From the NCBI GenBank assembly GCA_020721965.1, contig DYLS01000004.1, positions 9,091 through 73,090 on the forward strand: a stretch of DNA of 64,000 nt, read 5' to 3'. Under the pieces are notes generated by a model. It was given only the letters and a program-made list of their open reading frames with translations, had not been told where the DNA came from and searched no databases. Position numbers and translations under genes: made by a program. This document shows positions 5,095 through 18,086 of the stretch, in pieces. This DNA comes from Blastopirellula marina. Its GTDB lineage: Bacteria; Planctomycetota; Planctomycetia; Pirellulales; Thermoguttaceae. Numbering within the stretch: position 1 is the first letter of the stretch; each line of letters starts with the position of its first letter.

Positions 5095-6150
5095 CTAAGC
5101 GTTGGGAGCGGAACCGCTGGCGTGGCGATGGGCCAATTCCACGACCGTGCGCCCCATGACTTTGCCGGCCAAGATGTCGCCCAAGAGCGGCTCCAGCGAT
5201 TCCAAGGGAACGATCCGCCGCAGGTCCGGCAGGCGTTCCACGCGCCAGGCGTCGGCCAGCAGGGACCAGATTTCGGCCTTCCGCTTAATGCGTGCGTAGG
5301 CGGCATCGATCCCCACCAAGGTGATGCCGCGCAGGATGAACGGATAGACCGTCATATCCAGGCGATTGCTCGCGGCCAGCCCGCACGCCGCCACGCATCC
5401 ACCGTGCTTTACCGATCGCAGGAGGGTGGTCAAAATCCGGCCGCCAACGGTGTCCACGGCCCCCGCCCAACGTCCGGAGAGGAGAGGCTTGTCCGTTTTG
5501 TCTTCCGCCTGATCGCGTGAGAGAAAGTCGCTGGCCCCCAGGCTTCGCAAGAGCGAGATGGCGTGGGGTTTTCCCGTCACGGCCGTGACATGAAATCCGA
5601 GCTTCGCAAGGATGGCCACCGCGAGGGAACCGACGCCACCCGACGCCCCGGTCACCACCACGTCGCCCCTCTCCGGGATAGCGCCGTGTTGCAGCAAGGC
5701 CTGCACGCACATCGCGGCGGTCAATCCGGCCGTGCCGTAGGTCATGGCGTCCAGGGAATTGAGGTTGGGCGGTAAAAGCAACACCCATTCGCGCGGCACG
5801 CGGACCCATTCGGCCCAGCCTCCCCAGCGTCCGGAACCCATCTCCCAGCCGGTGACCACCACGGCATCGCCTGGTGAGAAATCGGCCGTTTGCGATTGGG
5901 CGACCCTCCCAGCCGCATCGATGCCGGGAACGTGCGGAAAGCTCGTCACCACGCCGGGATGCCCTGCCGCGGCCAAGGCGTCCTTGTAATTGAGCGAGGA
6001 GTGTTCGGTCCGAATCAAGACCTCTCCCGGCGGAAGCTCCAATAATGGCCGATATGCCAGGCCACGCCGGATCGTGCCGTCCTCCAACCGCTCGACCCAG
6101 AGGCAGCAAAACGAGTCCGGCAATTTGAAGGCTTGCGATCTCGGTTCCAT
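5095..6150 (-). CDS. acuI: YhdH/YhfP-family MDR oxidoreductase (acryloyl-CoA reductase AcuI-like)
   Basis: SSLNYKDALA, PHVPGIDAAG, GTAGLTAA, VTGASGGVGSLAV, GAVDTVGG, PFILRGITLVGID. AGGAG RBS before the ATG at 6150. Confidence 0.88.
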   Translation of the reverse strand: MEPRSQAFKLPDSFCCLWVERLEDGTIRRGLAYRPLLELPPGEVLIRTEHSSLNYKDALAAAGHPGVVTSFPHVPGIDAAGRVAQSQTADFSPGDAVVVTGWEMGSGRWGGWAEWVRVPREWVLLLPPNLNSLDAMTYGTAGLTAAMCVQALLQHGAIPERGDVVVTGASGGVGSLAVAILAKLGFHVTAVTGKPHAISLLRSLGASDFLSRDQAEDKTDKPLLSGRWAGAVDTVGGRILTTLLRSVKHGGCVAACGLAASNRLDMTVYPFILRGITLVGIDAAYARIKRKAEIWSLLADAWRVERLPDLRRIVPLESLEPLLGDILAGKVMGRTVVELAHRHASGSAPNA

Positions 6151-6330
6151 GACGACCACACTCCTTTTGCCCATGCCGTTCCCCGCGGTCGGCGATGCAA
6201 CCTGATGCTACAGCGGAGGGTTCTTCGATTGGCTCAGCATCTTGTGGTGAGGGATTGCATCGCCTCCCAACTTATGCCCGGCACATCATCGAATTAGGCG
6301 GACTTTGCGATCTAGTGCGAAAGGCGAAGC

Positions 6331-6346
6331 TGGCACCGCTTTTGCA
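6331..6346 (+). promoter_or_regulatory. Perfect sigma54 (-24/-12) consensus match, oriented antisense to htrA
   Basis: TGGCAC-cgctt-TTGCA (GG-N10-GC). There is no + strand gene directly downstream, so it may be a chance match. Confidence 0.3.
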
Positions 6347-6395
6347 GGCGAGGCCCACCTTCAGACCGCCCTCCGGCAGGTATCCCGCCGCGACT

Positions 6396-7592
6396 TCACA
6401 GGCCGGCCGTACTCGGACGCGCGATGAGCTTGACCTTGACTGTAAACACCTGGCCGGCGCGAAACACTTGGAGTTCCACCTCTTTGCCGATTTCCGAGGT
6501 GTTGACCATATACACGAGATGGGCATCGTCTTCCACAACGTGCTGTTCGAACCGCAAGATGATGTCCCCCGGCTGGAGTCCCGCCGCCAAAGCCGGTGAA
6601 TCGGGGGTCACGGTAACAATGCGTGCTCCCAGCCGGGCATCCAATCCCGCCGCCTGAGCCGCCGCCGCATCGAACCGTGCGTCCAGCGATACTCCCAAGA
6701 AGGCTCGCCGCACCGTGCCAGACTCCACCAGCTGCCGAGCGACCCAAAGAAACGTATTGATGGGAATGGCAAAACCGATCCCCTCATTGCCGCCGGAATT
6801 GCTAGCGATGGCGGTATTGATGGCAATCACACGACCCCGCAAATCGACCAGTGGACCGCCACTATTGCCGGGGTTGATGGCGGCGTCCGTCTGGATGAAG
6901 TCTTGCAAGCGGACATTGGAATCGCCCAGATCCAAGTCGCGCCGCCCCTTGGCGCTGATAATACCAAACGTCACGGAATGGCTGAGTCCGAACGGACTGC
7001 CAAACGCCAATACGAAGTCCCCGATGTCCGTCTCATCGCTGTTGCCGATTTCGGCCGTGAACAAGTTCGATGCGGACACCAAAAGCACGGCGATGTCGGT
7101 CTCAGGATCGCTGCGGACCTCTGTCGGTTGAATCAAGCGCCCGTCGGCCAAGTGAACCCTGACCTTGTCGGGTTCGGCATCGCGCACCACGTGGCGATTG
7201 GTGAAGATGCACGTCCGGCCGTTGAGATTCACCAGGATACCGGAGCCTGCCTCTTCGACAGGCCTGGACGAGCCGGACTGCAAGGCCCGACGCCCCGGAA
7301 CCTGCGCTTCGATGTGCACCACGACTGGCCCCACAATCTTCGCCACCAATCGTACTACGGAAGCCTGGGCCTCCAAGAGCGCCGCCTTCTCCGAAAGCTC
7401 GCGCATCAGCGCGGACCGCGTCTCCTCGTTCAGCGGCCCGAACTTCTCCAAGGCCGTTGGGATCGCCGACCGACCGGTCCTCGACTGCCCCATCGCAACG
7501 GAGAAATTGAGGGCTGGTATCAACAGCAAAAGCCAAATGGCAGCCGCCGGCCTCGTTAAGAACGGGATACGAATTCTCGAAAGATTTGCCAT
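6396..7592 (-). CDS. HtrA/DegP-like trypsin serine protease with one PDZ domain and a signal peptide
   Basis: FTNRHVV (His), ETDIAVL (Asp), DAAINPGNSGGPL (Ser), GIGFAIP, C-terminal PDZ (SPALAAGLQPGDII). Confidence 0.95.
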   Translation of the reverse strand: MANLSRIRIPFLTRPAAAIWLLLLIPALNFSVAMGQSRTGRSAIPTALEKFGPLNEETRSALMRELSEKAALLEAQASVVRLVAKIVGPVVVHIEAQVPGRRALQSGSSRPVEEAGSGILVNLNGRTCIFTNRHVVRDAEPDKVRVHLADGRLIQPTEVRSDPETDIAVLLVSASNLFTAEIGNSDETDIGDFVLAFGSPFGLSHSVTFGIISAKGRRDLDLGDSNVRLQDFIQTDAAINPGNSGGPLVDLRGRVIAINTAIASNSGGNEGIGFAIPINTFLWVARQLVESGTVRRAFLGVSLDARFDAAAAQAAGLDARLGARIVTVTPDSPALAAGLQPGDIILRFEQHVVEDDAHLVYMVNTSEIGKEVELQVFRAGQVFTVKVKLIARPSTAGL

Positions 7593-11460: not shown

Positions 11461-11640
11461 ACTGGACTTTTGCAAAGTGCTCAATCCCCCTCCGAGAGAG
11501 GGCTACAAACTAGGGTGCTAGGAAATCCAGGAAAACACGGAAAGCCGTTTTCGTGGGAAACTGTCTTCGCCCCACCATCTCCCCAGGGAAGGTGGGAGCT
11601 TGTGACTTCAAGTTGCAAAAGTCCAGTGCAAAAGTCCAGT
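11461..11640. mobile_element. MITE family B (167 bp, TIR ACTGGACTTTTGCAAA), copy 1, with a 13-bp duplication of the right TIR
   Basis: Left TIR 11461-11476; right TIR 11613-11627 plus repeated GCAAAAGTCCAGT 11628-11640. TCAGTA lies on both sides (11456-11461 and 11640-11645). Colinear with the reverse complement of the copies at 25092 and 44550. Confidence 0.88.
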
Positions 11641-11957
11641 CAGTAGATGCCCAGTGCGTCCCGGGCATCGTCGGACATGCGGTCGGGCGTCCAGGGCGGT
11701 GAAAGCACGACTTCCACGGTCACGTCACCGACTTCCTCGCCCAAGTGACGGAGCACGTCCTTGACGTCGGCCACCATTTGAGGACCAGAGGGGCAGGCTG
11801 GGCTGGTCATCGTCACCTTCACGTGAATGTCGGTCTTCTCATCTCGCGGCGTGACCTGGACCTCGTAGATCAAGCCCAAGTCCACCACGTTGATGAAAAG
11901 CTCGGGATCGGTGACTTGCTTCAGGGCTTCCAAGACCGTCTGCTCACAAATCGCCAC
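11640..11957 (-). CDS. sufT: DUF59/SufT Fe-S cluster maturation protein
   Basis: EALKQVTDPELFINVVDLGLIY, MTSPACPSG, SPPWTPDRMS. Confidence 0.92.
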   Translation of the reverse strand: MAICEQTVLEALKQVTDPELFINVVDLGLIYEVQVTPRDEKTDIHVKVTMTSPACPSGPQMVADVKDVLRHLGEEVGDVTVEVVLSPPWTPDRMSDDARDALGIY

Positions 11958-12065
11958 AATCGCTCCTCCTATGATTGTCTCCTGTGATTGTCTGCTCCTA
12001 CCTGCTCCTCCCCCTATGATAGTCTGCTCCAGCGGTCGGCCGATTAGAGACCAATCCCCGATTCG

Positions 12066-12386
12066 CTACGCATCCTCGTTGAGTCGGATGAACACATCGT
12101 CGCCGCGGACGAGGACCTCGTGAGCCGGGGTTCCCTTGACGGCGGGCATGGTCTTCGCGTGGCCCGTGCGAATGTCGAACTGTGCCCCGTGGCGAGGGCA
12201 AACGATGGTGTAACCCCGCAGATCCCCTTCCGCCAGGGGACCACCGTCGTGCGTGCAGATATCGTCGATCGCCCAAAATGTTCCCGACACATGAAACAGG
12301 GCGATCGATCGCCCGTCGACTTCATATACGGCCTTGCCGGGGTCCGGGAGATCGGACACCTTGCAAACGAAAACCGGTTCCGCCAT
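12066..12386 (-). CDS. Rieske [2Fe-2S] ferredoxin
   Basis: DICTHDGGPL...CPRHGAQFD (CxH...CxxH). Confidence 0.95.
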   Translation of the reverse strand: MAEPVFVCKVSDLPDPGKAVYEVDGRSIALFHVSGTFWAIDDICTHDGGPLAEGDLRGYTIVCPRHGAQFDIRTGHAKTMPAVKGTPAHEVLVRGDDVFIRLNEDA

Positions 12387-12520
12387 GAATTCAGTCCCTC
12401 AAATGTTCGTCACTGTGCCAACATCTCACCATCGCTATCACCGCAGACTTCTACGTCGGAAAAGAATGCAATGCCCAGACGCCCTCGCAGCTCGCAGTAA
12501 CTCCAACCAGCGTGGCAGCC

Positions 12521-13852
12521 TCAGCGGTACTCGCGGACCTTGCGGCCGATCACCTCCGCCAGGGCCTCGCGGGCACTGTCGATCGTAATCCGGTCGAAGA
12601 CCTGTTGGAAGAAACCGGTGACGATCATGCGAGCGGCCTCCCGCTTCGTTAAACCTCGAGTTTGCGCGTAGAAGATTTCCTCGTCGTCCACCCTACCCGC
12701 CGTCGCCCCGTGCGTGCAACGGACGTCATCGGCCAAGATCTCCAGACCGGGAATGCAATCGGTGCGGGCACGGTCGCTGAGGATCAAGTTGTCGTTCCGC
12801 TGATAGCCGTCGGTCTTGATGGCACCCTCATCGACGCGAATCATGCCCCGCCAAACCAGGTGAGACCGATCCTGCAAGGCACCCTTGTACAGCAGATCGC
12901 TGCGGGTGAACGGCTTTTTGTGATGCTGCAAGGTATGATAGGCGAGGTGCCGGCGGTTTTCTGTGAACATCACCCCGTTGACGACCGCTTCGGCCTGTTC
13001 ACCATCCAGGATCAGATGCTGGTTGACCTTGGCCAACATGCCGCCTAACGCCCCTAACGTCCACTCCAGGTAGGCGCCCTGTTGCAGCACGGCCTTTTGA
13101 TGGGCGAAATGCCACACGGCGTCGTTCCAGTTTTGCAAATTGACAAAACGGAGCCGCGCGCCGGGTTTAAGGATCAGTTCGATCCCCCCGCAGTAAAGGC
13201 CCGTCCCCCCCGATTCGACACTCGCCGTCTCCGATACCAACGTGGCCTCCGCCCCCTCGTCGAGCACGACCAGCAAATGGCCCAAATCGGCTTGCCCTGA
13301 ACCCAACGCGGACAGGAGGAACAACGGCTCATCGACCCTGACGCCGCGGGGGATGTAACAGAAGGCGCCGCCCGTCCAAAAGGCCGTATGGAGCGCCGCA
13401 AAGCGATCGTAATTCCAGTCCAAAATGGAAAATAACGAATCGCGAACCAAGTCCGCCTGCGGGCCGAGGGCGGAATCCTCCAGGCAATCGAAGACCACGC
13501 CGCGATCCACCCATTTTTCGGACAGCGACCCGGCCACCTTGCGGCCGTCAAGCGTCAACAGCCTCCCCCCCGGGGACAGAAGCGGTTCCAGAACGGATGG
13601 CACCTGGGGCACAGTCTCGGGCCGGGGGGCCAGCGGCGCAAAGCCTTGCAGACGGAGCATTCGCAGGGGTGTCCGCCGCCACTCCTCCATCTGCGAGTTC
13701 GGCAGTGGCAGGCTTTCGCAGGCATCCATGGCCCGGCGCCGCAGTGCCAGCAACCACGATGGCTGCTTTCGCGACGCGATGTGCTCCTCGAACTGCTCGC
13801 GAGTAAACCCTTGGTCGGAAACCGCGGAAGTAGCGGAACTAGTCGAATTCAT
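12521..13852 (-). CDS. sufD: Fe-S cluster assembly protein SufD
   Basis: EEWRRT, GGAFCYIP, SDLLYKGAL, GYQRNDNLILS, PGLEILADDVRCTHGATAG, FYAQTRG. Confidence 0.95.
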   Translation of the reverse strand: MNSTSSATSAVSDQGFTREQFEEHIASRKQPSWLLALRRRAMDACESLPLPNSQMEEWRRTPLRMLRLQGFAPLAPRPETVPQVPSVLEPLLSPGGRLLTLDGRKVAGSLSEKWVDRGVVFDCLEDSALGPQADLVRDSLFSILDWNYDRFAALHTAFWTGGAFCYIPRGVRVDEPLFLLSALGSGQADLGHLLVVLDEGAEATLVSETASVESGGTGLYCGGIELILKPGARLRFVNLQNWNDAVWHFAHQKAVLQQGAYLEWTLGALGGMLAKVNQHLILDGEQAEAVVNGVMFTENRRHLAYHTLQHHKKPFTRSDLLYKGALQDRSHLVWRGMIRVDEGAIKTDGYQRNDNLILSDRARTDCIPGLEILADDVRCTHGATAGRVDDEEIFYAQTRGLTKREAARMIVTGFFQQVFDRITIDSAREALAEVIGRKVREYR

Positions 13853-14001
13853 GGTTTGGATTTCTCAGAATGCCACTCGCAACATCGATCGCCACCAAGG
13901 CTGATTTGCATCCCGACTCGGTTGGGATTCGGCTATACCGGCCCCCGCCAATCCGCGCCAACCGGAGGGGCACTGTGAGGGAAGCACCCGCCGCGGCTCG
14001 T

Positions 14002-15402
14002 TCAGCCGACACTCCCCTCCATTTGCAACGAAATCAGCCGGTTCATCTCGACGGCGTACTCCATGGGCAACTCCTTGACCAGCGGCTCGATGAAGCCGGC
14101 CACAATCATCGTGCTCGCCTCGGCCTCGGTCAACCCTCGGCTACACAGATAGAAGAGCTGCTCCTCTCCAATCTTGGAGACGCTGGCCTCGTGACCGATC
14201 ATCACGTCCTGCTCTTCTAGTTCAATGTAGGGGTAGGTGTCGCTGCGGCTCTGCGGGTCGAGGATCAAGGCGTCGCACACGACGTTGGCCTTGGACTTTC
14301 TGGCACCTCGCTCCATTTTGACCAGGCCGCGGTAACTGGAGCGTCCGCCGCCCTTGGAGATCGACTTGGAAACGACGCGGCTGGAGGTGTGGGGTGCGCA
14401 ATGCACCACCTTGGACCCTGCGTCCTGGTGCTGACCGTGATTGGCGAAGGCCACCGACAGGATTTCGGCCCTGGCCCCCGGCTCCAGCAGATACACGGCG
14501 GGATACTTCATCGTGAGGCGGCTGCCGAGGTTGCCGTCCACCCATTCCACTAGGGCGTCGCGGTAGGCCGTCGCCCGTTTGGTCACCAGATTGTAGATGT
14601 TGTTCGCCCAGTTCTGGATCGTGCTGTAGCGCACCCTGGCACCCCCTTTGGCGATCACCTCTACCACCGCCGCGTGAAGGCTCTCGCTGCTGTAGGTGGG
14701 AGCCGTGCAACCCTCCACATAATGGCACGAGGCCCCCTCATCCACGATGATCAGCGTCCGTTCAAACTGGCCCATCTGGGCAGCGTTGATACGGAAATAG
14801 GCCTGAAGCGGGAATTCGATATGCACCCCCGGCGGTACATAGATGAACGACCCTCCGGACCAGACCGCTGAATTCAGGGCCGCAAACTTGTTGTCCGTAG
14901 GAAGAATCACTGTGGCGAAATACTCGCGGACCAGGTCCGGATAATCGCGTACCGCCGAATCCATGTCCGTAAAAATCACGCCCAGCTTGGCAAGGTCCTC
15001 ACGCAGGGAGCCGTACACCACTTCGCTTTCGTACTGGGCCTTGACCCCGGCCAGGAATTTGCGTTCCGCCTCGGGAATCCCCAGGCGTTCGAACGTGTTC
15101 TTGATATCCTCGGGGACCTCGTCCCAAGAGCGTCCCTGCCGATCCGTGGGCTTGATGTAGTAATAAATGTCCTGGAAATCGACATCGATCTTGCCACCCC
15201 AGGTCGGCAAGGGCTTGGATTCAAAGATTTGCAGGGCGTTCAATCGGAATTCCCGCATCCAAGCCGGCTCGCCCTTCATCTCCGAAATTTCAGCGACGAT
15301 CTCCGCGTTGAGGCCCTTCTTCGCCTTGAACACATAATGCTCTTCACTGTGGAAATCGTACTTGTTGATGTCGCCCAAAATCTCGCGTGTTTCGAGGGCC
15401 AT
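14002..15402 (-). CDS. sufB: Fe-S cluster assembly protein SufB
   Basis: [66 protein letters not shown]. Confidence 0.98.
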
Positions 15403-15624
15403 GGACGCCTTCCTTTCTTCGAGAAAATAACCTGCGGCTCACCCGCCGCACTGTCGCCATCTCATTCCAGAGATTGCGCTTTGATGGCATTTTCGGGAGT
15501 CGCCCATCCTTCCCGACAATCGCCGAAGGATGGGGATGGATTGCCGCCTACCCATTCCGTTCGCATGTTCGCTACCGTCCTCCCGGCATCCCGCCGTTCG
15601 CCGCTGCGATCGATTCCCGCCCGG

Positions 15625-16440
15625 CTAACGTGTCCGCTCGGCCAGCATGGAGGCCTCTTCCGCGGCGGCCTCGGGATACTTCCGGCGGATTTCCTCATAG
15701 CCCGATGAATGTAGGAACTCGGCCAGCTCGCGTCCGCCGGTCTCCACGATGCGACCGCCCAGCATCACGTGCGTGAAATCGGGGGGGTTATGCTCCAGCA
15801 ATCGCTCGTGGTGCGTAATGATCAAGAGTCCCATCTCGTGGCCGCCAATTTCAGCGATGCTTTGACTTGCCAGCCGAACGGCGTCCACATCCAGGCCGCT
15901 GTCTGTTTCGTCCAGGATGGCAAACCGCGGCCGAAGCATCGCCATCTGAAGAATCTCCGCACGCTTCATCTCGCCGCCCGAAAAACCTTCGTTGACATAG
16001 CGCCGGGCAAACTCCGGGTCCATCCGCAATTGGTCCATCTTTTCGCGAAGCTCCTTACGGAACTCCCGCATGGAAACCAACTCATCTCCCTCTTTTCGCT
16101 GGGGATTTCGGACGTCACTGACCGCATGACGGAGAAAATCCGCCAAGCGAACCCCGGAGATGGCCACCGGCCGCTGAAAGGCGATGAACACACCCATCCT
16201 GGCCCGCTCGTGCGGCTCCAGTTCGACCAGATTGACGCCGTCCAATTCGATGCGGCCTTGCGTGACTTGGTAGCGGGGATGCCCCATGATGGCCAGCCCC
16301 AGCGTCGTCTTGCCCGAGCCGTTCGGCCCCATCAGGGCGTGGATCTCGCCGCGACGAACCTCGAGGTTTACCCCCTTGAGGATCAGCTTGCCATCCACGG
16401 ATACATGCAAATCAACGATGGAAAGTACGTCGCGCATCAT
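15625..16440 (-). CDS. sufC: Fe-S cluster assembly ATPase SufC
   Basis: [52 protein letters not shown]. Confidence 0.97.
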
Positions 16441-17045
16441 TTGCTCTTCACTCTCTGATGATGAAACACGAGATCAACGTCTTGAAGCGGAACGAATCCC
16501 GAATGCTGGGGCAAGGGCAACCGCGAATCGTCCGATTCTCCCGCTGAACCAGTGCCCCGCCGCGTGATGCGGCGATTCTGGATCATCTCTTGCAACCGCA
16601 TCAACCCTTCCAGCAAGGACTCGGGTCGCGGGGGGCATCCCGGCACGTAAACGTCCACCGGGACGACCAGGTCCACACCCTTGACCACGTGGTACCCATA
16701 CTCGAAATAGGGTCCGCCGCCCAAGGTGCAGGCCCCCATCGCAATCACGTATTTGGGGTCCGGCATCATCTCGTAAAGGCGTCGGACGCGGCTGGCCATT
16801 TTGAACGTCACTGTGCCCGCCACGATCATCAAGTCGGATTGCCGCGGCGTGGCCCGAAAGGCCCCTGCTCCGAACCGATCGATATCGTAGCGACTGGCCC
16901 CGGTGGCCATCATTTCAATGGCGCAACAGGCCAGGCCAAACGTCATGGGCCACAGACTCCCTTGCTTGGCCCAATTGATGGCCTGCTCCAGGCTCGTAAT
17001 CGCCAGGCCGTCTTCAAACCTTCCCTCGATCCACGGTTGTGCCAT
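16437..17045 (-). CDS. nuoB: NADH-quinone oxidoreductase subunit B (orphan, inside the suf cluster)
   Basis: [54 protein letters not shown]. Its TGA overlaps the sufC ATG (ATGA, 16437-16440). Confidence 0.95.
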
Positions 17046-17127
17046 GCGTTGATGACCCCCTGTACAGCGATTTTGAGGCTGCCACGGTCAGGCACTGATT
17101 CCCCGCGTGAACCTCGCTTGAAAAAAC

Positions 17128-17175
17128 ATACTGACATCCCGTAGATCAGTATAAATCAAGCGTTCGTTGCCTCAA
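17128..17175 (-). promoter_or_regulatory. Sigma70-like promoter for nuoB-sufCBD overlapped by a palindromic operator
   Basis: Minus strand TTGAGG (17175-17170)-N16-TATACT (17153-17148); inverted repeat ATACTGA-N11-TCAGTAT at 17128-17152. Confidence 0.55.
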
Positions 17176-17917
17176 ACCGGCAGCACTCTCCGCCGTCCAG
17201 GCGGCACTCCGTGAGCTGCATTTCGGTGCCCAGCAACTCGGAGAGGTAAGCTGCCTCGACGCGGCAGACGCCCCGGTCGCCGTCGGCCAGTTCAGGATAG
17301 GGACAGGCCCGCGCCACCAGCATGGGAAGCCCCTCAGGCTCGGCTCGACTTGCCTGATGGGCCTTCCCACCCGGCACCGCAACCGCTGTAAGCAGGTCCA
17401 CATCCTCGGACGAGTCGGGCACGCTGAGCATGGCCCCGCGTGCGCCCCCCGGTCCGTTCGCCGCGGCCATTCCTCCTACGCGCATCTCAAACGGGATGCG
17501 GCGTGCCTCCAGCACCCGAATCAATGATCGCATCCTATCCCCCGTGGTGCCTCCGGAAATCTGCCCTTGATAAAGCCGGGCCAGCTCTCTCGCCACGCTC
17601 CGCAAGACCTGCTCTTTCACGGTCGGGTTCTCGATCCGTTGAATCCCATGCCACAAGGCAACAGCCAGATCGGTAAAATTGGAGCCGACCTGAAGCATTC
17701 CTTTCCGAGTAAGTTTATAAACATGCCGAGGGCGTCCGCGTCCTCTGCGAAGCGATTCCCGTTCCACCGCCCCATCGGCAAGCAACCTAGCGAGCCGCTG
17801 CCGGACTGCTGTGTCCGTCACCCGAAATTCCCTCGCCAAGTCCGAGACCGTGCACGACCCAGAGACCCGCAATAATTCGAGGATGTCCAGATCGGATTCG
17901 CCGAAGTTCCAGCTCAT
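17156..17917 (-). CDS. sufR: SufR-like Fe-S-sensing transcriptional regulator (wHTH + Cys-rich C-terminus)
   Basis: N-terminal HTH (TVSDLAREFRVTDTAVRQRLARL...GRGRPRHVYKLT); C-terminal ACPYPELA...VC..E...EC...G.CC.F; position at the head of the suf cluster. Confidence 0.8.
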   Translation of the reverse strand: MSWNFGESDLDILELLRVSGSCTVSDLAREFRVTDTAVRQRLARLLADGAVERESLRRGRGRPRHVYKLTRKGMLQVGSNFTDLAVALWHGIQRIENPTVKEQVLRSVARELARLYQGQISGGTTGDRMRSLIRVLEARRIPFEMRVGGMAAANGPGGARGAMLSVPDSSEDVDLLTAVAVPGGKAHQASRAEPEGLPMLVARACPYPELADGDRGVCRVEAAYLSELLGTEMQLTECRLDGGECCRFEATNA

Positions 17918-18086
17918 GACCTGTCCCCCCCAAATCGCCAATCTTGGGCCATTTAACCCTTCGATTCCCAAAACCTATGCTCAAGCCCCTCGGATTTGCG
18001 ATCAGGAAACGTGACGTGGCATTCCCACGCTGGGTCGCGGTAGCCCTGTTGAATCGGGCGACCGGGAGTGTTTGACGCCCATTACT

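Follow-up and report, generated by a model that had tools for sequence, protein, structure and literature searches.

NuoB, also known as Nqo6, NDUFS7 or PSST, is the complex I subunit that carries the iron-sulfur (Fe-S) cluster N2. We describe here a nuoB gene (designated nuoB') that does not reside in a complex I operon, but is located among genes of the SUF Fe-S assembly system. It lies in a 64,000-nucleotide (nt) stretch of DNA from Blastopirellula marina (assembly GCA_020721965.1, contig DYLS01000004.1, positions 9,091 to 73,090), which is referred to below as the window. The product of this gene belongs to the same curated family as chain 6 of the Thermus thermophilus enzyme (4HEA) and the plant and mammalian PSST proteins, with which it shares the four cysteine ligands and the protein core (residues 15-160). 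It differs from canonical NuoB in two respects: its gene is placed between sufR and sufC instead of between nuoA and nuoC, and the protein is extended by an extra tail of about 40-60 residues.

Complex I-like enzymes composed of 11 subunits, i.e. without NuoEFG, are known from Bacteroidota, Chlorobiota, Ignavibacteriota and some other groups (Moparthi and Hagerhall 2011, PMC3144371), while planctomycetes are not mentioned in that survey. The subunit set of these enzymes equals that of a second, nuoEFG-less complex I encoded in the window's genome (hereafter type-2), neither having an NADH module, and their NuoB proteins (58-68% identical) are the nearest outgroup to NuoB'. The gene orders are different: the 11-subunit operons of Bacteroidota, Chlorobiota and Ignavibacteriota keep nuoB in the row A-B-C-D-H-I, whereas in the window's genome nuoI precedes nuoA, with a DUF2203 gene between them, and only nuoB is found in the suf operon. 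The cyanobacterial and plastid NDH-1 complexes likewise have no NADH module and are encoded by scattered ndh genes, which in cyanobacteria are distributed over several loci.

With regard to its other genes, the locus resembles the SufR-type suf operons (e.g. cyanobacterial sufR/sufBCDS and actinobacterial sufR-sufBDC-csd-nifU-sufT), in which a winged helix-turn-helix regulator with a cysteine cluster is also encoded beside sufCBD, and Rieske and SufT proteins occur as accessories. In contrast to those operons, its regulator scores below the cut-off of the SufR_cyano model, it includes no sufS, sufE or sufU, the cysteine desulfurase genes being located elsewhere, and the first gene after sufR is a structural gene of a respiratory complex. 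Factors such as Ind1/NUBPL and the HCF101-type DUF59-Mrp proteins supply complex I or photosystem I with [4Fe-4S] clusters. They too connect the provision of Fe-S clusters with the assembly of a single respiratory or photosynthetic complex, but do so as dedicated carriers, while in the case of nuoB' the link is genetic (a shared operon).

The components of the locus are of known kinds: a member of the NuoB/PSST family, an 11-subunit enzyme (PMC3144371) and a SufR-type operon. What appears to be new, as far as our searches of the literature reach, is that one structural gene of complex I is stably placed at the start of a suf operon in at least two orders, and is paired with a nuo operon containing a precise gap for it. 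No description of nuoB in a suf operon, or of a nuoB-less planctomycete nuo operon, was found in the full-text literature, the coverage of which misses most subscription journals.

The nuoB' gene and its placement in the suf operon

Searches with Pfam and NCBIfam profiles identified seven co-directional genes on the minus strand of the window (11640-17971), in the order sufR-like, nuoB', sufC, sufB, sufD, Rieske ferredoxin gene and sufT, exactly as proposed in an initial annotation made from the sequence alone. The nuoB' gene (17045..16437, minus strand) encodes a protein of 202 residues, which matched models TIGR01957 (230.3 bits versus a cut-off of 142.7), NF005012 (241.8 versus 116) and PF01058 (98.9 versus 27), all above their cut-offs, and is classified as a PSST/Nqo6-type subunit carrying the [4Fe-4S] cluster N2. 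The four N2 ligands, which had been described as intact, are indeed present as C40, C41, C106 and C137 (CCxxE ... GAC ... GCPP) and are invariant in 25 orthologues, and the core of the protein aligns closely with the solved PSST/NDUFS7 chains (E value about 1e-59). Only Oxidored_q6/NuoB and related hydrogenase small-subunit models were matched; profile searches did not place NuoB' in any of the carrier families (A-type SufA/IscA, Nfu, Mrp/ApbC).

The overlap of the nuoB' TGA with the sufC ATG, another feature recognized initially, was confirmed as the tetranucleotide ATGA at 16437..16440 (minus strand; junction sequence AAATGATG), a geometry of the kind that would allow translational coupling. 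The downstream gene, sufC (16440..15625, minus strand), encodes the Fe-S assembly ATPase (TIGR01978, 315.7 bits versus 212.8). This is the sole overlap in the operon, the remaining junctions being 108-222 nt long. The initial annotation had further stated that the window contains no other nuo gene and no sufS, sufE or sufU. Whole-genome family searches revealed no NuoD, NuoH, NuoI or second NuoB-family match on the window's contig, and no class-V aminotransferase (SufS/IscS type) either, the cysteine desulfurase genes being located elsewhere in the genome; the statement stands to this extent, while SufE and SufU were not searched for.

The nuoB'-sufC adjacency, which might have been unique to this genome, proved to be conserved in the window's order and in four further families of the class. 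The order sufR-nuoB'-sufC-sufB was found in 26 of the 29 loci of the window's family and order. In a sample of the class (121 genomes of at least 90% completeness), nuoB' was adjacent in all but one of the NuoB'-bearing genomes of the same order, the exception being G078, in which the two genes are placed at the ends of different contigs. Outside the order, families f22, f24, f27 and f28 contribute 21 NuoB'-bearing genomes, and in each of them nuoB' precedes sufC on the same strand; in families f25, f26 and f29 it is not beside sufC, and either adjoins nuoD2 or stands alone. Such an adjacency is far beyond chance. The distance between nuoB' and sufC varies from -8 to +214 nt across the relatives: overlaps of 4-8 nt recur in five loci (L014, L030, L031, L035 and L037), and gaps of 3-214 nt are present in the others.

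In two genomes of another family, one or two genes of the Uma2 family (putative restriction endonucleases) have been inserted between nuoB' and sufC (L148, G118:C23, 1131-2316; L149, G064:C42, 1401-1967). The order sufR-nuoB'...sufC is otherwise intact at both loci.

A second complex I operon with a vacant nuoB position

The window's assembly (97% complete, 380 contigs) contains four Oxidored_q6 genes in total, as determined by a family search. One of them, on contig C7, is part of a canonical 14-subunit operon (nuoA-B-C-D-E-F-G-H...), another, on C126, encodes the small subunit of a NiFe hydrogenase and adjoins the gene of its large subunit, and a further one is the suf-linked nuoB'. The remaining copy (C36; L005, 3911-5849) is one long frame that also encodes a 2x[4Fe-4S] Fer4 domain, and is situated beside a NuoD-like gene at the contig end. 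Distinct from both nuo operons, this set resembles a group-4-hydrogenase-like or Mbx-like module.

The second NuoD and second NuoH of the genome were found by family search on contig C187, where the gene order is nuoI2-DUF2203-small open reading frame (ORF)-nuoA2-nuoC2-nuoD2-nuoH2-nuoJ2-K2-L2-M2-N2, with all frames open. No nuoB and no nuoE, nuoF or nuoG is present at this locus, nuoH2 following directly after nuoD2. The end of nuoA2 and the start of nuoC2, i.e. the position where nuoB belongs, are separated by 3 nt. The operon thus encodes ten subunits without NuoB, and therefore requires a NuoB encoded elsewhere. Its ten genes and nuoB' of the window together make up the 11-subunit set (A, B, C, D, H and I-N, with no E, F or G in the cluster).

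According to one proposal of the initial annotation, the genome's only nuoB had been placed under Fe-S-responsive control, in which case the main nuo operon might lack this gene. The canonical operon on C7 carries its own nuoB within nuoA-B-C-D, which rules out nuoB' as the sole nuoB of the window's genome. The "only nuoB" part of the proposal survives in a narrower form, since nuoB' is the only nuoB available to the second, nuoEFG-less operon, and it applies literally to four relatives (G027, G035, G088 and G150), in which nuoB' is the sole Oxidored_q6 gene of the genome. In G035 (assembled as a single contig) and G027, nuoA-C-D-H is present without nuoB, while in G088 and G150 the type-2 NuoD is the one NuoD match. 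Where genomes are complete, nuoB' and nuoD2 lie 0.5-2.5 Mb from each other.

The region between nuoI2 and nuoA2 (L052, G000:C187:19000-38999, 5226-7113) contains the DUF2203 gene (5985-6482) and an ORF of 97 residues. A homologue of the DUF2203 gene occupies the equivalent place in G027 (L039) and in a Gemmataceae-like metagenome-assembled genome (MAG; L080), and its product may be an accessory subunit of the type-2 complex.

Co-occurrence of nuoB' with type-2 complex I

NuoB' was called in the relatives at no less than 66% identity over the full length. In the window's genome and 40 relatives, NuoB' and NuoD2 were both present in 30 cases and both absent in 8; the three discordant genomes are fragmentary or 72% complete. 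In the class sample, NuoB' occurs in 69 of the 121 genomes, and a type-2 NuoD was matched directly in 63 of these. For the other six, a family search yielded a type-2 NuoD in all five that were checked, and the second NuoD of G072 is an unsplit variant. The sole genome with NuoD2 and no NuoB' match (G094) has a nuoB' gene truncated by the contig end, upstream of sufC.

The suf operon itself does not depend on the presence of nuoB'. In five nuoB'-less relatives sufC directly follows sufR, and the row sufC-sufB-sufD-Rieske-sufT was recovered in all eight nuoB'-less operons traced downstream. The possibility that the Rieske and sufT genes arrived together with nuoB is ruled out, as both are present in these eight operons. 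Of ten nuoB'-less genomes in which NuoD was sought, four gave no match and another five lacked the type-2 form (four contain only the canonical form, and G054 additionally gave a weak 98-bit match); the tenth is G110. In this last genome, which has no NuoB' match, a split-pattern NuoD-type match (G110:C1:2277581-2278330) is located in an open frame of 929 residues that may represent a fused NuoCD or NuoBCD-type gene.

The reverse situation is represented by G011, G013 and G024, which have kept nuoB' and NuoD2, with nuoB' standing alone. In these three genomes and in G022 (all of the window's family, 78-95% complete) no SufB (TIGR01980) and no close SufC was found, and they may rely on another Fe-S assembly system. 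Both states, i.e. nuoB' present and nuoB' absent, occur inside families f1, f18 and f24, which points to at least three separate co-losses. Judged by gene content, nuoB' follows type-2 complex I and not SUF.

Family f24 also shows variation in the distal part of the operon. In three nuoB'-bearing loci (L158, L159 and L160, of G072, G088 and G049, respectively) there is no sufD, Rieske gene or sufT within about 5.5 kb past sufB, and five nuoB'-less genomes of the same family retain the complete sufCBD-Rieske-sufT row.

Phylogeny of NuoB'

A scan of named genomes placed the nearest relatives of NuoB' (62-79% identity) in Planctomycetota. Genomes of Bythopirellula, Pirellulaceae, Thermoguttaceae and Fuerstiella, together with MAGs that bear the label Planctomycetaceae, have the suf-linked row sufR-nuoB-sufC-sufB-sufD. 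A gene whose product is 71-79% identical resides inside the row nuoI2-nuoA2-nuoB-nuoC2-nuoD2-nuoH2 in Gemmataceae (among them Gemmata algarum), in Phycisphaerae and in a small number of further MAGs. This I-first operon has the layout of C187, with the nuoB slot occupied.

A tree built from 112 NuoB sequences grouped all suf-linked rows and these nuo-linked planctomycete rows in one clade (support of 94 in the Shimodaira-Hasegawa-like approximate likelihood ratio test, SH-aLRT). Its sister group comprises the NuoB proteins encoded by the A-B-C-D-H-I (11-subunit) operons found in Bacteroidota, Chlorobiota and Ignavibacteriota, and the canonical NuoB of the window's genome (53% identity to NuoB') is a distant outgroup. 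By this grouping, NuoB' is orthologous to the in-operon nuoB product of Gemmataceae and Phycisphaerae. Resolution inside the planctomycete clade is poor and the tree is too short for counting relocation events; a single origin of the relocation would be compatible with its starred branches.

The C-terminal tail of NuoB'

The tail (residues about 161-202; 16440..16565, minus strand) extends about 40-60 residues past the part aligned with solved NuoB chains, the PDB matches stopping at about residue 160. It contains two conserved motifs, LPxP(H/Q)HSG(Y/F)V and, close to the C-terminus, (L/V)(F/Y)xHQK(I/V), in which H196 and Q197 are invariant in 25 NuoB' sequences. Third codon positions vary freely under these motifs, and selection therefore operates at the protein level.

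The histidine pair of the first motif is present in suf-linked lineages. In the nuo-linked Gemmataceae this motif lacks the histidines (P-x-R-T-G), and the tail is missing altogether from the Phycisphaerae proteins. The Planctomycetaceae-labelled suf-linked copies L067, L071, L072 and L079 lack the terminal motif, as do L035 (G008) and the stand-alone copies L032, L033/L066 and L036, which reside in genomes where SUF was not found. These differences fall on few lineages and therefore do not permit the claim of an association. The tail could be a structural element specific to complex I of this lineage or, alternatively, a part that engages SUF, and a metal- or partner-binding role of its histidines (PxHSG ... 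HQK) is possible. Prediction of a complex of NuoB' with SufC and SufT, with alignments as input, gave a score of 0.01 against a mark of 0.32, a result that speaks neither for nor against binding.

Origin and possible role of the suf-linked gene

We consider it very likely that nuoB' is the ordinary N2-subunit gene of type-2 complex I, which was relocated into the suf operon. NuoB' would then be the PSST/Nqo6-type carrier of the terminal [4Fe-4S] cluster N2 in an 11-subunit enzyme, the other ten genes of which reside on C187. The relocation would have occurred in an ancestor shared by the window's order (Pirellulales-like) and one or more sister orders within its class: nuoB would have left a nuoI-A-B-C-D-H operon and entered between sufR and sufC, i.e. 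at the head of a pre-existing sufR-sufCBD-Rieske-sufT operon. In its present location nuoB' is probably co-expressed with SUF, as suggested by the gene order, and its control by the SufR-like regulator is plausible given its position. Transcription together with sufCBD could be driven by a promoter located in the 110-nt sufR-nuoB' spacer or result from read-through from sufR, and in the window's family nuoB' might also be translationally coupled to sufC. If the genes are co-expressed, the N2 subunit, which the quinone module cannot do without, would be made in step with the Fe-S status sensed by SufR and with the capacity of the Fe-S assembly machinery.

Several points weigh against this scenario. 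The physical presence of NuoB' in the type-2 complex is predicted from gene content, and co-transcription, SufR control and translational coupling are deduced from the geometry of the locus. The nuoB'-sufC overlap is mostly confined to the window's family, the gap elsewhere being up to 214 nt. No conserved operator was found upstream of nuoB' in 43 sufR-to-next-gene spacers, and an inverted repeat located there in the window, which is without conservation, could be a weak sufR terminator. The relatives are not independent, and the co-occurrence counts overstate the number of events. Finally, the conserved tail motif is not explained by the solved complex I structures.

The alternative put forward in the initial annotation was a paralogue that had been turned into a [4Fe-4S] carrier or a redox partner for SUF, i.e. 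a stand-alone protein with the NuoB fold that serves SUF as a carrier or electron donor, independently of complex I. The placement among suf genes, without any nuo gene beside it in the window, would suit such a role, as would the extra tail absent from solved NuoB chains, and the electron donor of SUF is generally unsettled. The distribution of the gene is nevertheless that of a type-2 complex I component: suf operons that are otherwise the same lack it whenever the genome has no type-2 complex, it is retained where SUF was not found, and it is the only NuoB-family gene where the nuo operon is without nuoB. In addition, the suf-linked copies group in the tree with the in-operon nuoB of sister lineages, to which they are orthologous, and the protein core is conserved as in a working complex I subunit. 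The comparative data leave the repurposed paralogue close to refuted, and we regard it as highly improbable. There is hardly more to be said for a stress-induced isoform that replaces the canonical NuoB of the 14-subunit complex upon Fe-S damage. Six genomes with the canonical complex only (G007, G022, G070, G076, G113 and G152) have no suf-linked copy, those with the type-2 complex only (G027, G035, G088 and G150) carry nuoB', and the two proteins are just 53% identical; these observations outweigh the coexistence of a canonical nuo operon and a suf-linked copy in one genome, and the suitability that SufR-type control would have for stress induction.

A different question is whether the relocation of the N2-subunit gene has any function. 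It could be envisaged that a SufR-controlled suf transcript and a histidine-containing tail engaging a SUF component act together, so that Fe-S supply gates the assembly of the type-2 complex and N2 is loaded directly by the SUF machinery, although we find this doubtful. A more specific proposal, which seems improbable to us, is that NuoB', while being a complex I subunit, docks onto a SUF component via its tail and obtains N2 directly, and has been kept in the suf operon for this reason. The placement is conserved over many genera and at least two orders despite insertions, the nuoB'-sufC junction is the tightest in the operon, and the tail motifs are under protein-level selection, all of which favours such a hand-off. 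The pattern of the motifs can be read either way: the histidine pair of suf-linked lineages is replaced by P-x-R-T-G in the nuo-linked Gemmataceae, and the terminal motif is missing from the stand-alone copies L032, L033/L066 and L036, but these differences amount to one or two events and not to a statistical association. Moreover, L035 has SUF and the adjacency yet no terminal motif, the same motif is lacking in four other suf-linked copies (L067, L071, L072 and L079), and the first half of the tail is already present in the nuo-linked Gemmataceae, so the tail may be structural. Contact between NuoB' and SUF is conjectural.

The relocation of an ordinary N2-subunit gene would resolve a recurring puzzle in planctomycete genome annotation, i.e. 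a complex I operon without nuoB in genomes whose suf operon contains an "orphan" copy. Caution is likewise called for, as such an orphan should not be named a new Fe-S carrier. Gene order is otherwise poorly conserved in the planctomycete phylum, and here a respiratory structural gene has been retained in an Fe-S biogenesis operon over at least two orders. The arrangement may provide a natural system for studying N2 delivery and the possible tuning of complex I assembly to Fe-S status, and the comparison of cultured planctomycetes that possess it with Gemmata-type controls (nuoB in its own operon) is amenable to ordinary genetics. If the relocation were functional, a client-specific Fe-S hand-off would be encoded in the structure of the operon.

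The sufR-nuoB' spacer and the other genes of the operon

The SufR-like regulator (17917..17156, minus strand) was recognized by winged helix-turn-helix Pfam matches and a C-terminal cysteine cluster. Its score with TIGR02702 (SufR_cyano) is 48.5 bits versus a cut-off of 178.8, which is below the level of a cyanobacterial equivalog. The cluster has the pattern C-x12-C-x19-C-x6-CC, with three cysteines invariant and two nearly so in 20 orthologues. The longest ORF begins with TTG at 17971, and the ATG at 17917 is preceded by a G-rich Shine-Dalgarno sequence, making the latter the likelier start codon.

In the region of the sufR-nuoB' spacer (17128..17175, minus strand), a promoter-like sequence, TTGAGG-16-TATACT, is overlapped by the perfect inverted repeat ATACTGA-N11-TCAGTAT. 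The repeat (17128-17152) is placed just past the sufR stop codon and is followed by GTTTTTT (T6); its role could be that of an operator, or that of a weak, AT-rich intrinsic terminator for sufR. The genome contains a single copy of the repeat, the C187 nuo locus has none, and relatives, including the nearest one, do not conserve it. The number of promoter-like sites is not above that in shuffled sequences, and the predicted fold of the sufR-nuoB' spacer is no better than that of shuffles (z = -0.53). An Rfam scan of the window between 11000 and 19000 gave no match. The operator search in the 43 spacers combined perfect 7-nt inverted repeats, within-genus alignment and k-mer enrichment versus shuffles; it revealed only loosely recurring -10-like hexamers (TATACT/TATAGT), with the rest at background level.

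Downstream of sufC, the minus strand carries sufB (15402..14002; TIGR01980, 707.9 bits versus 346.4) and sufD (13852..12521; TIGR01981, 250.5 bits versus 222). The two distal genes, on the same strand, encode a Rieske-type [2Fe-2S] ferredoxin (12386..12066; PF00355, 67 bits) and the DUF59 (FeS_assembly_P) protein SufT (11957..11640), which scored 93 bits with TIGR02945, under the cut-off of that model, and 68.7 bits with PF01883.

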